A program made the position numbers and the translations under genes. A stretch of DNA of 27,493 nucleotides from a virus (Duplodnaviria; Heunggongvirae; Uroviricota; Caudoviricetes). Location of the stretch: positions 1 through 27,493 of the IMG/VR virus record IMGVR_UViG_2703718834_000005, one strand, 5' to 3'. Below, piece after piece: positions 2,187 through 26,578 of the stretch. Positions within the stretch are counted from its first letter, which is position 1. Every line of letters starts with the position of its first letter. Below the pieces are notes generated by a model. It saw only the letters and a list, made by a program, of their open reading frames with translations, searched no databases and was not told the origin of the DNA.

Positions 2187-3604
2187 TACTCAATCCTTAT
2201 CTGGCAGCCAGACAGAGTGACAGGTGACTTCGTGATAACGCGCAATTTGAAGCCAATGTTTTTCCTGATGCGCCCTACTCGCTTCCACAAAACGCGTTTG
2301 TCGTAAACGAACGGTTCATTCTGCTCAATCATCTTTTCACGCCCGTAATTTATGCCGTCAGTGGTTGCAGAGAGAAAAAGGCGGTCAGCGTACTGCGCAA
2401 CGCCAGTGGATGATTCCACCTCCAGATCGAAGCATCTGGCGTTATCCGCTTTGAACAACGGAGTAAACAGCAGGTGTTCCTGCTGCTTGTCGTACTGGCT
2501 GCTGATATCGAACTGCAATTTCCCGGTCACGGATTCCAGCTTATCGCCGCACGTTATCTGATTGCCTTCGTAAATGAAATCGATAGCGCGGTACACATCG
2601 TCATACAGGCCTGTTTTCAGCACACACCATTGCGGACCATTGGCACTTGAAGATGCGTCGTACACGAGTACATGGCGCGGAAGGTGGATAATCAGCAGCT
2701 CATGAGCATCAAACCGCAGCGATTCCATCACACCATCAGCCAGTTCATCAGCAGTGTAGGAGCGGAGAATTTTCTCAATGCTCGCGCTGGCGATTGGTGA
2801 CACCTGACCGGAGCCGATGATATATACAGACGGTGCACCTGTTGCCGGATTGCTGATGAAAGCATAGGAATCAGCAAACGGCGTTTTGCAGTAAGTCCCG
2901 GCGATGCCTTTTTGCACCATCAGTGATGGCTGCGCGACATACAAAGCAGCACCAACGGTGGTTGCGCCAGTCAGGGAGAAATATTCAATAGTCGATGAAC
3001 CAAAGCAGACGATGAAGTCTCGCCATGTTCCGATGCCGAGGATACCGTCCGGCTGCGATTCTGCGCGATATTGTGCGCTGTAACGGTCAGGATGCGATTC
3101 GTCTTCAAGGTCAGTGATAAACCATGAATCAGAGCCGTCTTTTGACCACGCATAACGCCCACGTAAGCGCGTAATGTCACGAACAGAACCTAACTCATAC
3201 TGAGTGAATCCGCTGTCTGTAGGCCAGTTTGAGACGGTTTTAACCGTACCATCATAGCGATACTCGACCAGTTGACCATTAACGCCTACCGCCTGTGATG
3301 TTCGACCATGCGCCATTGATACGCGACCACTTCCGGCAACATTACCGACTTCGCTTTCTCCTTTGTACAGCTTGCCACCACACACGCGATAAACAGCATT
3401 CTGCGCCATGTTGTACTCGACGCCGCGCGATACACCGTTCACATCAGAGCGTTTGGCAATGCCCGGGAATGAGCGAAGATATCCGCTGCTGTTGAGGATT
3501 TCTTTGGGTGTAGCCAGCATATTCACTGGCAGATAGTCGATATAGTCGGCGTTTCGAAAGTCTTTGCCGACACCTTTCATAAGCGGAAGTTGCTGAATCG
3601 GCAT
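2186..3604 (-). CDS. tail hub / head-completion protein, P22 gp10-like
   Basis: 472 aa, same length as P22 gp10; located between gp4-like gene and tail needle. Confidence 0.7.
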
Positions 3605-21155: not shown

Positions 21156-21452
21156 TCAGAATTGCATATCAATTTGCTTAAAATCCTCGGTGGCGGCCGG
21201 GGATTTTTTCTTTGTGATTTCATCAAGCGCATACTTAAAAGCCCTGCTAATCGGACTGATGTCTGATGCCATTCCGAAAGCACACAAGACCGAAGCAATA
21301 AATCTCCAGTCCGTTCTGCTTATCTTCGATTCATGACAGCCAATCATCTTTGCCAGACCGCGCTGGGTAAGCGTTGACAGGTTGATGAGTAAATCAGTTT
21401 CAGCGCGATCAATTTCTCGCTGTGTTGGCTTGCTGTAGCTTGCTTGTGCCAT
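21156..21452 (-). CDS. cII: CII-like lysogeny establishment activator
   Basis: 98 aa; HTH region and C-terminus [18 protein letters not shown] resemble recalled lambda CII (KKRPAATERSEQIQMEF). Confidence 0.8.
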
Positions 21453-21833: not shown

Positions 21834-22484
21834 ATGAATACACAACTGATGGGTGAGCGTATTCGCGCTCGCAGAAAAGAACTCAAGATTAGGCAGGCTG
21901 CCCTTGGAAAGATGGTTGGCGTGTCTAATGTTGCTATTTCCCAATGGGAGCGATCTGAAACTGAGCCCAATGGCGAAAACCTATTGGCCTTAGCCAAGGC
22001 TTTGCAGTGCTCCCCTGATTACCTGTTGAAAGGAGAGGATAGTCTTTCAAACATTGCCTATCACAGCAGGCATGATCCAAGAGGTTCGTATCCTCTAATT
22101 AGTTGGGTAAGCGCAGGATGTTGGATGGAAGCTGTAGAGCCATATCATAGGCGTGCAATAGATAACTGGTACGACACAACGGTAGATTGTTCTGAAGACT
22201 CTTTTTGGCTCGACGTTAAAGGCGATTCAATGACTGCCCCGGCAGGACTGAGTATTCCTGAGGGGATGATTATTCTCGTCGACCCAGAAGTCGAACCACG
22301 TAATGGAAAGTTGGTAGTCGCCAAACTTGAAGGAGAAAACGAGGCGACATTCAAAAAGTTAGTTATTGATGCCGGTAGAAAATTCCTGAAACCACTCAAT
22401 CCACAATACCCAATGATTGAAATCAATGGGAACTGTAAAATCATTGGCGTTGTCGTTGATGCCAAGCTAGCAAACCTTCCTTAA
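21834..22484 (+). CDS. c2: C2 repressor (P22 c2-like, HTH + LexA-type autocleavage domain)
   Basis: 216 aa; N-terminal HTH (QAALGKMVGVSNVAISQWERSE), C-terminal GDSM serine and KL lysine of S24 peptidase fold; matches recalled P22 C2. Confidence 0.95.
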   Translation: MNTQLMGERIRARRKELKIRQAALGKMVGVSNVAISQWERSETEPNGENLLALAKALQCSPDYLLKGEDSLSNIAYHSRHDPRGSYPLISWVSAGCWMEAVEPYHRRAIDNWYDTTVDCSEDSFWLDVKGDSMTAPAGLSIPEGMIILVDPEVEPRNGKLVVAKLEGENEATFKKLVIDAGRKFLKPLNPQYPMIEINGNCKIIGVVVDAKLANLP

Positions 22485-22688: not shown

Positions 22689-22798
22689 CCAGAACTTGAG
22701 TGGTTTTGGGGATGGCGCGAATTGCAGCTGCAAGACAGCGATCGAGAAGATAAGCACCTCGACGCGTCATGCGCCAAAGCCACTTAAAGGAGACCATC

Positions 22799-23104
22799 AT
22801 GGTAACCATTGTCTGGAAAGAATCCAAAGGTACGGCAAAAAGCCGCTACAAAGCTCGCAGAGCAGAACTTATTGCCGAGCGACGCAGTAATGAAGCACTG
22901 GCGCGAAAAATTGCGCTAAAGCTCTCTGGTTGCGTCAAAGCAGACAAAGCAGCATCACTAGGAATCCTTTGCTGCAAGAAGAAAGAAGAAGTCGTTCGAA
23001 AAAATAGAAGTATTTATTACAAAGATTCAAACCCATTAGGAAACAAAATACATGCAGTCCAAAAAATAAAATTGTACAGTAAACTACCGTACGGTGCTTA
23101 TTGA
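22799..23104 (+). CDS. N: N antiterminator, chimeric: phage 21-type arginine-rich motif with a different N-like C-terminus
   Basis: 101 aa from ATG at 22799 (AAGGAG SD, 7-nt spacer); ARM GTAKSRYKARRAELIAERR as recalled for phage 21 N; C-terminus KDSNPLGNKIHAVQKIKLYSKLPYGAY differs from the displaced remnant at 23475..23570. Confidence 0.75.
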   Translation: MVTIVWKESKGTAKSRYKARRAELIAERRSNEALARKIALKLSGCVKADKAASLGILCCKKKEEVVRKNRSIYYKDSNPLGNKIHAVQKIKLYSKLPYGAY

Positions 23105-23106
23105 GT

Positions 23107-23445
23107 ATGCTTATGGTGAAAAAGACTATTTATGTTAATCCTGACCGCGGACAAAACAGAAAAGTATCTGATAGAGGTCTTACATCTCGAGACAGGAGGA
23201 GAATAGCGAGATGGGAAAAGAGGATAGCATATGCATTAAAAAACGGTGTAACACCTGGATTTAATGCTATAGATGACGGTCCTGAATATAAGATTAATGA
23301 AGACCCAATGGATAAAGTTGACAAAGCATTAGCAACACCATTTCCTCGCGATGTCGAAAAAATTGAAGATGAAAAATATGAGGATGTAATGCACAGAGTT
23401 GTTAATCACGCTCACCAACGAAATCCAAATAAAAAATGGTCATAG
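23107..23445 (+). CDS. nun: Nun-like transcription termination/exclusion factor
   Basis: ARM DRGLTSRDRRRIARWEKRIAYALKN and C-terminal NPNKKWS with penultimate Trp, as recalled for HK022 Nun; start ambiguous (ATG 23107 or 23113, GTG 23116; track uses TTG 23101). Confidence 0.8.
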   Translation: MLMVKKTIYVNPDRGQNRKVSDRGLTSRDRRRIARWEKRIAYALKNGVTPGFNAIDDGPEYKINEDPMDKVDKALATPFPRDVEKIEDEKYEDVMHRVVNHAHQRNPNKKWS

Positions 23446-24354: not shown

Positions 24355-24449
24355 GCACTGTGTATTCATTCCAACGAGTGAATACACGGAGCAATGTCGC
24401 TCGTAACTAAACAGGAGCCGACTTGTTCTGATTATTGGAAATCTTCTTT

Positions 24450-24473
24450 GCCCTCTAATATGAGGGCCTTTTT
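24450..24473 (+). terminator. intrinsic terminator within early-left operon
   Basis: GCCCTC-taatat-GAGGGC followed by CTTTTTAT. Confidence 0.5.
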
Positions 24474-24539
24474 ATATGCATACCAATAACGCTTCACTCG
24501 AGGCGTTTTCGTTATGCAATCAAATATAAGGAGTTACCC

Positions 24540-24674
24540 ATGATGCACTTTCAGCTCGCGGGTAGCGGCGTCATGTCCGCTTTCTACCCGCACGAATCTG
24601 AATTATCACGCCGAGTTAAACAATTAATCAGAGCAGCAAAGAAACAACTGGAGGCGTTATGCGCAATGAAATAG
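24540..24674 (+). CDS. CIII-like small protein (44 aa), not in ORF track
   Basis: AAGGAG SD with 6-nt spacer; MMHFQLAGSGVMSAFYPHESELSRRVKQLIRAAKKQLEALCAMK; pattern AG..V...P.ES.L.R...KL resembles recalled lambda CIII; expected position upstream of the recombination gene. Confidence 0.45.
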   Translation: MMHFQLAGSGVMSAFYPHESELSRRVKQLIRAAKKQLEALCAMK

Positions 24675-24811
24675 CCATCAATCACCAGATGCTTCGTGCT
24701 GCACAGAACAAAGCAGTAATAGCCAGATTTATTGGTGATTCAAAAATGTGGCTTGAAGCAAATAAAGCGATGAAATCAGCCATCAACCTTCCGTGGTATC
24801 GCAGGAAATGA
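24659..24811 (+). CDS. Kil-like small protein (50 aa), not in ORF track
   Basis: GGAGG SD; overlaps previous ORF end; MRNEIAINHQMLRAAQNKAVIARFIGDSKMWLEANKAMKSAINLPWYRRK; the FIGD.KM segment resembles recalled lambda Kil. Confidence 0.4.
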   Translation: MRNEIAINHQMLRAAQNKAVIARFIGDSKMWLEANKAMKSAINLPWYRRK

Positions 24812-24915
24812 GTTTTACAGATAACTGGTCAGACGAAGAATTCATTCGTCAGATGAACAAAATGCTCAATCAGCACAAAGAACAGGAGAAAGATGATGAT
24901 TCTGACTCTGAATGA
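24808..24915 (+). CDS. possible small acidic protein (35 aa)
   Basis: ATGA overlap with previous ORF stop; overlaps next ORF by 23 nt. Confidence 0.25.
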   Translation: MSFTDNWSDEEFIRQMNKMLNQHKEQEKDDDSDSE

Positions 24916-25204
24916 TAAGCGTGAAATATCGCAAATAATCGCAAGTTTTACTGATGAAGATTACGAGCGAATCAACAGTGAAGTTGATCGTCTCTGCAAA
25001 CGTTGCGACCCAATAAGCGAAATGCTTCGCTCATATAAACCAGATGAACACACTAAGGACGCTATCGACTGGCTGGAAGATGATGACTGTAACTATCAGG
25101 AAAAAGCCGCTGAATGGTTCTGGGATGCAATAACCGAAAGAGTTAAGGCTGAATATGCCTTCGCAATATTCAAACGCAGACACATTTTTGGAGAAGCTGC
25201 ATGA
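24893..25204 (+). CDS. hypothetical protein (103 aa) immediately upstream of recT
   Basis: AGGAG SD; ATGA overlap with recT start. Confidence 0.55.
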   Translation: MMILTLNDKREISQIIASFTDEDYERINSEVDRLCKRCDPISEMLRSYKPDEHTKDAIDWLEDDDCNYQEKAAEWFWDAITERVKAEYAFAIFKRRHIFGEAA

Positions 25205-26112
25205 GCAATATCGTTGAATTCGTTAAACAGCAGGAGCAGTTATTCTGCGGAGCATTGACTGAACAGACGGTGACATGGGCTAAGGAAAGCCAGTTTGCAA
25301 TTCAGTATTTCCAGAAAAACGATTACCTTGCTAAAACGGCACTGGCAAATCCAACCAGCGCACAGAACGCCATCATCAATGTTGCGGCGATCGGCATCAC
25401 CTTAAACCCGGCCAGCAAACTGGCTTATCTGGTTCCGCGCGACGGCATGGTGTGCCTTGATATCAGTTATATGGGATTGCTCCATATTGCAATGGAGTCT
25501 GGTGTTATCTCATGGGGTCAGGCAAAACTTGTTCATGCTAACGATACCTATGAGTCAAACGGGCTTGATAAAGCACCAACCCATAAATACAACGCCTTCG
25601 GTGATCGTGGTGATATCGTTGGCGTTTACTGCACAGTTAAGACGCCAGCAGGTGATTATCTAACGGAAGAGATGAGTCTGGCTGAAATTGAGGCTGTAAG
25701 GAAAACAAGCAAGGCGGCCTTCAGCGATAAAGGACCATGGGTAAATCACTGGAATGAGATGGCGCGAAAGACGGTCGTAAAGCGTGCAAGCAAGTATTGG
25801 CCTAAGGCATCACGTCTTGATAGTGCTATTCACGTACTAAACGAAGAAGAAGGTGTGTGGACTGAACCAGTTATGCCGCACAAATCAGAGGAAGATATCC
25901 GCGAAGATGAACGGAAACGCCAGCAGGAAATAATGGATAAAGCACAACTTCTTTGTGATGAAATGGCTCAGGCAGAAAACATGGATGATTTGAAGCGATA
26001 TTTTGCAGAAGCATATCGCCTGACATCTGGAATGAAATTGCAGCAGAACGTACAAGCCATTTACGCAGAATGCAAAGCGAAACTGGAGGTTGCCAGTGAG
26101 CAAACTGTATGA
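25201..26112 (+). CDS. recT: RecT-family single-strand annealing recombinase
   Basis: 303 aa; segment KGPWVNHWNEMARKTVVKRASKYWP resembles recalled E. coli RecT (GPWVTHWEEMAKKTAIRRLFKYLP). Confidence 0.8.
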   Translation: MSNIVEFVKQQEQLFCGALTEQTVTWAKESQFAIQYFQKNDYLAKTALANPTSAQNAIINVAAIGITLNPASKLAYLVPRDGMVCLDISYMGLLHIAMESGVISWGQAKLVHANDTYESNGLDKAPTHKYNAFGDRGDIVGVYCTVKTPAGDYLTEEMSLAEIEAVRKTSKAAFSDKGPWVNHWNEMARKTVVKRASKYWPKASRLDSAIHVLNEEEGVWTEPVMPHKSEEDIREDERKRQQEIMDKAQLLCDEMAQAENMDDLKRYFAEAYRLTSGMKLQQNVQAIYAECKAKLEVASEQTV

Positions 26113-26578
26113 AATTGCCAATGAATACGCAAAATTGATGGATTCAGATTTAGAACCAGAGATGATTGCTGACACAATAGAAGGCATGGAAGGAGAATTT
26201 ACCGATAAAATAGAGCAACTTCTTTCCGTCATTAAAAATGAATCTGGTTATGCCGAACGCCTCAAGGAAGAGGCAAAGTCACTGAATGAGCGAGCCGCAG
26301 TAATTCAAAATAAGATTGACAGCATCAAATCATATATAGCGTCATCGCTTGAAATTGTTGGCAAGAAAAAGATTCGAGCAGGTATTCACCAGGTAACAAT
26401 CCGCAAACCGTCAGAAACTGTAGAAATCATCGACTCAAGCGCCATTCCTCCTGAATACGTTGAGTTTGAAACGACAATTAAAGCCGACAAACTGGCAATC
26501 AAACACCAACTAAAAGCAGGAATAAATATCCCCGGCGCTCAACTCAAGGTTGGGAAACCTTCACTTCTTATCAAATAA
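26096..26578 (+). CDS. hypothetical protein, possibly Gp157-family, downstream of recT
   Basis: GTG at 26096 with GGAGG SD 6 nt upstream (track start is TTG at 26090); overlaps recT end; family assignment by recalled pattern only. Confidence 0.45.
   Translation: MSKLYEIANEYAKLMDSDLEPEMIADTIEGMEGEFTDKIEQLLSVIKNESGYAERLKEEAKSLNERAAVIQNKIDSIKSYIASSLEIVGKKKIRAGIHQVTIRKPSETVEIIDSSAIPPEYVEFETTIKADKLAIKHQLKAGINIPGAQLKVGKPSLLIK

Follow-up and report, generated by a model that had tools for sequence, protein, structure and literature searches.

The early-left operon and its gene order

The DNA analysed here (27,493 nucleotides, hereafter the window) belongs to a temperate, P22-like phage or prophage (Sf6, HK620, HF4s or Kapi1 type); its early region is mosaic, and its host is E. 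coli or Shigella. On the plus strand, cI is followed by an N-like gene, a Nun-like ORF, three small accessory genes, two hairpins, and then a coupled string of overlapping genes (cIII - kil - orf35 - orf103 - recT), behind which a Gp157-family gene is located. The features of this region are listed below in the order of their positions in the window.

21156-21452, minus strand: cII, lambda-type (PF05269 Phage_CII, E = 2.7e-33; phrog_191, E = 1.6e-36)
21834-22484, plus strand: cI
22769-23104, plus strand: N-like antiterminator gene, heading the operon that includes the coupled string (phrog_271, E = 7.6e-31)
23101-23445, plus strand: Nun-like ORF overlapping the N-like gene (phrog_5632, 'Nun-like transcription termination factor', E = 4.8e-71)
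24450-24475, plus strand: terminator-like hairpin T1, GCCCTC-loop-GAGGGC with a T-run (stem-loop 24450-24467; pattern scan)
24488-24515, plus strand: second terminator-like hairpin, AACGCTTCACTCGAGGCGTT, then TTTCGTTAT (stem-loop 24488-24507; pattern scan)
24528-24533, plus strand: SD sequence of cIII, AAGGAG, with 6 nt between it and the ATG (24540; read from the sequence)
24540-24674, plus strand: cIII of the HK022/HK97 type, 44 aa (identity to HK97 Gp44; PF08134; phrog_550)
24650-24654, plus strand: SD sequence of kil, GGAGG, inside the 3′ end of cIII (read from the sequence)
24659-24811, plus strand: kil, 50 aa, with a 16-nt overlap with cIII (identity to HK97 Gp43; PF06301; phrog_2055)
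24808-24915, plus strand: acidic ORF of 35 aa (orf35), ATGA-coupled to kil (Kapi1_014, hypothetical protein; phrog_17766)
24893 or 24896 to 25204, plus strand: orf103, an ORF of 102 or 103 aa (phrog_3486, a function-unknown family, E = 3.7e-59)
25201-26112, plus strand: gene of a recT-family single-strand annealing protein (PF03837, E = 3.7e-32; phrog_148, E = 2.9e-92)
26090-26578, plus strand: Sipho_Gp157 family gene after recT (PHROG label 'Mu Gam-like end protection')

The original prediction had described three overlapping ORFs of 44, 50 and 35 aa between the accessory genes and the recombination gene, where lambda has cIII and kil. All three are present with these overlaps, the third being acidic and having an ATG that overlaps the stop of kil, and their location agrees with the gene orders of both lambda (ea10 - cIII - kil - gam - bet; its cIII and kil overlap) and P22 (terminator - c3 - kil - arf - erf; each gene overlaps the next). 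The good SD sequences that had been noted for the first two ORFs were also recovered, and the start of kil precedes the end of cIII by 16 nt. Before the 35-aa ORF only AGGAA is found, which abuts the ATG, and this ORF therefore has no good SD sequence of its own. On the minus strand, all ORFs across 24540-24915 are of 34 aa or less, and no Rfam match was obtained anywhere in the window. An ORF listing with a cut-off of 60 aa (the default here) would omit all three small ORFs.

Between 24380 and 25220, the DNA shows 98-99% identity to HK97, HK022, mEp235, mEpX1, and Kapi1. Of 5,426 complete E. coli genomes, 1,111 (approximately 20%) contain the stretch, as do 328 phage records. In the HK97 record, a putative terminator, cIII (Gp44), kil (Gp43), and Gp42.1 are annotated here, and all five genes of the string from cIII to recT are annotated in Kapi1.

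Two further observations concern the flanks of this string. The N-like and Nun-like genes stand in tandem, an unusual arrangement compared to lambda, which has N only; in HK022, only Nun is known. Both genes are annotated as hypothetical in Kapi1, and the match of the N-like gene to PF25694 (N_peptide) stayed under the cut-off (E = 0.004). On the other side, orf103, which is labelled hypothetical in Kapi1 and by PGAP, overlaps the 35-aa ORF by approximately 20 nt and recT by an ATGA. It is thus translationally coupled to recT in a position that one might have expected an exonuclease partner to occupy, and no exonuclease gene was seen in the recT part of the recombination module.

cIII and kil of the HK022/HK97 type

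The product of the 44-aa ORF is 100% identical to HK97 Gp44 CIII (AAF31124). It also gave a full-length match to PF08134 ('cIII protein family'; E = 2e-30, 104.7 bits with a cut-off of 25), in which residues 2-38 correspond to positions 1-37 of the 37 profile positions, and a match to phrog_550 (CIII) with E = 2.6e-13. CIII proteins are divided into two classes, lambda and HK022, and those of HK022, HK97, and H-19B are mutually identical (Kobiler 2007, PMC1838920). These three phages share with the window not only the same 44-aa sequence but also the position of cIII after a terminator and the 16-nt overlap with kil. The surroundings differ from those in HK97, in that the window phage is P22-like rather than an HK97-like siphovirus and has RecT in its downstream module, where HK97 has Erf.

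The relationship to lambda CIII is more distant. The score of the 44-aa product with PF02061, the lambda-type family, was below the cut-off (12.4 versus 25.7 bits; E = 0.17), and BLASTP found no match between this product and lambda CIII, which indicates that it belongs to a sister class of lambda CIII rather than to the lambda class itself; HK022-type and lambda-type CIII are both included in PHROG 550. After the negative BLASTP result, Smith-Waterman scores were compared with those of shuffled sequences and a multiple alignment was built. By this approach, the core of lambda CIII could be aligned with the window protein (a score equalled by 16 of 20,000 shuffles), as could P22 C3 (3 of 20,000). 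The alignment to CIII that the original prediction had called for was therefore obtained for the core, with both lambda and P22, and not at the level of a BLASTP match to lambda CIII. Nine columns of the multiple alignment are invariant (A7, G8, E19, S20, L22, R24, L29, K34, and L40). Lambda CIII (NP_040620) and P22 C3 occupy the same operon slot as the window CIII and share with it the N-terminal A-G motif and an ES.L.R...L....K.....L core; the identity of the window protein is 27% to the former and 36% to the latter, and it is 8-10 residues shorter, lacking the C-terminal NQPGVP tail of both.

The CIII-like amphipathic core that had been read from the sequence was confirmed by calculation: the helical hydrophobic moment of residues 21-38 is 0.72, a value reached by only 3 of 5,000 shuffles, and a single-sequence structure model predicts a helix at residues 17-42, with pLDDT values of 94-97 over residues 21-40. 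In lambda, CIII is a competitive inhibitor of FtsH, through which CII and sigma-32 are stabilised, and its conserved and essential part is an amphipathic helix formed by residues 14-37 (PMC1838920), to which the shared core of the window CIII corresponds.

Public annotations differ in the start of this gene and in its name. A second ATG at 24543 provides an alternative start (43 aa), from which cIII of CUS-3 is annotated (436-567 of the compared CUS-3 locus), and Kapi1_016 has 61 aa due to an upstream start (2892-3077 of the compared Kapi1 locus). No in-frame start upstream of 24540 is present in the window. In E. coli, the RefSeq PGAP label for the allele is 'hypothetical protein' (1521-1655 of the compared locus).

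The Kil-like assignment of the 50-aa ORF was likewise correct, since its product is the same protein as HK97 Gp43 Kil (AAF31123; 100% identity, no difference over 50 aa) and matches PF06301 (Lambda_Kil) with E = 1.7e-20 (72.6 bits with a cut-off of 27.6; residues 9-39 at positions 1-31 of the 31 profile positions) and phrog_2055 (Kil) with E = 1.2e-35. With lambda Kil (NP_040619), 17 of 30 aligned residues are identical (57%; E = 3e-9), and none of 20,000 shuffles reached the score of this alignment. It includes the FIGD.KM segment that had been noted as Kil-like, which reads FIGDEKM in lambda and FIGDSKM in the window. The comparison with known Kil proteins thus succeeded for lambda and failed for P22, whose Kil resembles the window protein at chance level (2,130 of 20,000 shuffles are as good), is placed in a separate PHROG (2394), and was rejected as a relative.

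In the structure model of the window Kil (mean pLDDT 86), helices were predicted at residues 2-25 and 28-42, separated by a turn at G26-D27 that aligns with G19-D20 of lambda Kil at an offset of +7. A helix at residues 4-18, the turn G19-D20, and a helix at residues 21-38 have been described in lambda Kil, each of them being required for activity (PMC11762379), and this architecture is reproduced by the model of the window Kil, which has 7 additional residues at its N-terminus. In both phages, the gene also overlaps the 3′ end of cIII. After kil, the window has a small ORF and RecT, and lambda has gam and bet. The C-termini differ as well (NLPWYRRK in the window, ILKLRSSKSIH in lambda): a C-terminal RSK or RSSK is present in nearly all lambda Kil homologues and is considered functionally important (PMC11762379), being a reported common feature and not a formal criterion of membership, whereas the C-terminus of the window Kil is basic but contains neither form of the motif.

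A rival reading is that the 50-aa protein behaves not like lambda Kil but like other phage Kil proteins (P22 Kil, Rac KilR), for instance with the elongation machinery as a target in addition to the division machinery. All of these proteins are small toxic peptides encoded in the same slot of pL operons, the missing RSK/RSSK motif sets the window Kil apart from most lambda-type proteins, and KilR is reported to be a dual inhibitor (PMC12482147). However, the chance-level similarity to P22 Kil and its separate PHROG speak against such a mode of action, as does the strong similarity to lambda Kil over both helices and the turn, and we regard it as very improbable.

Another explanation would dispense with gene function altogether: the small ORFs could have arisen by chance and be untranslated, the DNA from the accessory genes to recT being intergenic or leader sequence. 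Frames of this size are indeed frequent: ORFs of 35-50 aa (counted from ATG, with lower limits of 35-44 aa) occur at 4-5 per kb in the window and nearly as often in shuffled sequences, so that the case for cIII and kil rests on homology and not on the open frames. None of the small proteins is represented by an NCBIfam model, and PGAP neither recognizes cIII nor calls the 35-aa ORF. Nevertheless, chance frames would account neither for curated family matches as strong as those to PF08134 and PF06301, nor for two products that are completely identical to annotated CIII and Kil, nor for strong and correctly spaced SD sequences before both genes, nor for the synteny with lambda and P22, where the two genes are genetically defined. 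For the small ORFs taken together, we therefore consider this explanation to have almost no chance of being correct; for cIII and kil it is refuted by homology, and only the 35-aa ORF could still be such a frame.

Based on these comparisons, it is highly likely that positions 24540-24915, within the early-left (pL) operon, carry cIII and kil as alleles of the HK022/HK97 type and, behind them, a small conserved ORF. Judged from their sequences, both are already known genes and their presence is an ordinary finding, because the 44-aa and 50-aa products are identical to annotated HK97 proteins. They are textbook lambdoid genes, and the value of the result lies mainly in correct annotation. The annotation of exactly these alleles in HK97 and HK022 dates from about 2000, and work by Kornitzer in 1991 reportedly covered cIII of HK022. 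Automated annotation is uneven at this locus: RefSeq names the kil gene, but PGAP leaves cIII as a hypothetical protein and omits the 35-aa ORF, although about one-fifth of complete E. coli genomes contain the stretch.

The 35-aa ORF at a mosaic joint

The 35-aa ORF matches phrog_17766, a function-unknown family, with E = 5e-16; it is annotated as hypothetical in Kapi1 and is absent from the RefSeq PGAP calls. By comparing the window with seven other loci, its first 16 codons (MSFTDNWSDEEFIRQM; approximately 50 nt, 24808-24857) were found to form a mosaic island with sharp boundaries. The ATG of this ORF is the exact point from which SEN22, Salmonella phage 29485, and HK542 are similar to the window; upstream of the island, these three have a different gene of 56 aa, likewise ATGA-coupled. 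In HK97, CUS-3, and HK542, similarity to the window stops at codon 17. The DNA of the island is nearly 100% identical among the variants, and it is followed by three unrelated tails (35, 52-83, and 60 aa) that lead into RecT, RecE-annotated, or Erf modules, with Erf being the one in HK97, CUS-3, HK542, and 29485. Each variant keeps the ORF open from the same ATG. HK97 Gp42.1/Gp42 (phrog_2123, phrog_1723), for instance, agrees with the 35-aa ORF in codons 1-16 and in overlapping kil by an ATGA but is wholly different after codon 16, with a length of 83 aa compared to 35. The island contains 2 synonymous and 4 non-synonymous substitutions, which are too few to show purifying selection. This ORF may serve as an example of a mosaic joint located inside a small gene.

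A possible counterpart is P22 Arf (NP_059597), which is also small and acidic and whose gene also comes right after kil, overlaps it, and heads the recombination module. P22 Arf has 47 aa and is encoded directly before erf, whereas the window ORF has 35 aa and precedes the 103-aa ORF and RecT. The two proteins share SDEEFI at the same distance from the N-terminus, and 3 of the 6 codons differ between the window and P22 arf, all synonymously, including TCA versus AGT for Ser; their alignment is equalled by 19 of 20,000 shuffles. The profile match of the 35-aa ORF to phrog_2445 (Arf) is weak (E = 0.062), and P22 Arf did not match the PHROGs of the 35-aa ORF in the reciprocal search. Homology to Arf was not raised beyond E of about 0.06. 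Arf is known to aid phage recombination without being essential, and its molecular mechanism is unknown (PMC12315714).

The character of the island allows two readings of the 35-aa ORF. It could be no gene at all, with the 50-nt head being a recombination linker that is used for module exchange and the open frame being incidental. The sharp boundaries, at the ATG in some phages and at codon 17 in others, speak for this reading, as do the near identity of the DNA and the kinds of substitution in it (2 synonymous, 4 non-synonymous), and neither a PGAP call nor an independent SD sequence marks the ORF as a gene. On the other hand, the frame stays open from the same ATG in every variant, with three unrelated tails, and we infer that open runs no shorter than 35, 52, and 60 sense codons would occur together with a probability of roughly 1e-3 at the local composition. 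The ATGA overlap has been retained behind two different upstream genes, and P22 Arf, a genetically defined protein from the same position, shares SDEEFI in spite of its synonymously different codons and aligns with a score that few shuffles attain. We thus find it unlikely, though by no means far-fetched, that the head is only a linker. The open frame in every variant and the synonymous codons of SDEEFI in P22 Arf instead suggest that the 35-aa ORF is probably a real, translated small gene at a mosaic joint, and its product may assist the recombination module in the way of P22 Arf.

A bolder proposal is that the conserved 16-residue head is a functional peptide module and not a mere linker, retained where unrelated recombination modules begin (RecT, Erf, RecE-like) because it serves phage recombination genes generally, as an accessory or for coupling. 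We consider this to be quite doubtful at present; if it were true, the 35-aa protein of the window would represent a minimal Arf-like factor that works with RecT.

The 56-aa gene upstream of the island in SEN22, 29485, and HK542 takes the place of both cIII and kil (534-704 of each compared locus). Its product (MQQFAIAGAASV...LEKLxDILKQQGRP) has a CIII-like N-terminus (AIAG) and C-terminus and is annotated as CIII in HK542, and no Pfam match was found for it. It may represent a third class of CIII, occurring in phages without a lambda-type kil.

Proposed mode of action and upstream RNA structure

Functions of CIII and Kil in this phage are transferred from lambda biology, from which the following course of events may be proposed. 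After infection or induction, transcription from pL, antiterminated by the N-like protein, would read through the two hairpins, and cIII would be translated from its strong SD sequence. Ribosomes that finish cIII and kil would help to start the next gene via the 16-nt and ATGA overlaps, respectively. The amphipathic helix of CIII (approximately residues 17-42) would then competitively inhibit FtsH, whereby CII and sigma-32 would be stabilised and lysogeny favoured. The gene arrangement is that of an HK022-type cIII: the gene belongs to the pL operon, follows a terminator, and overlaps kil, and the same phage encodes CII, the protein that CIII is expected to protect from FtsH.

In lytic growth, the predicted helical hairpin of Kil, with its turn at G26-D27, would block FtsZ-ring formation in a ZipA-dependent manner and cause transient filamentation. 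Lambda Kil is a ZipA-dependent inhibitor of FtsZ (Haeusser 2014, PMC3961180), and the ZipA-dependent block of FtsZ-ring assembly, with filamentation, has been shown for Kil of lambda and HK629 (PMC3961180, PMC11762379). In the literature, no paper testing an HK97-type Kil was found; since proteins of this type have neither RSK nor RSSK, they offer a ready natural variant for testing the role proposed for that motif.

As for the RNA upstream of cIII, hairpin T1 corresponds to the annotated 'putative terminator' of HK97, which differs from it in the loop only. The second hairpin is kept in Kapi1 with a compensatory change from C-G to U-A (AACGC..GCGTT to AATGC..GCATT), which suggests that its structure is under selection, either as a terminator or as a processing site. 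The minimum-energy fold of 24440-24600 has a z-score of -5.6, and in this fold the U-run of T1 pairs with the SD sequence of cIII (24468-24533), which recalls the structure-controlled translation of lambda cIII. The same pairing of U-run and SD sequence is predicted in HK97. Sequestration of the SD sequence by the T1 U-run was rejected as a conserved mechanism because it is impossible in Kapi1, which has approximately 290 nt in place of the U-run. Within the coding region of cIII, a stem (24560-24591) is predicted in the window, HK97, and Kapi1 alike.
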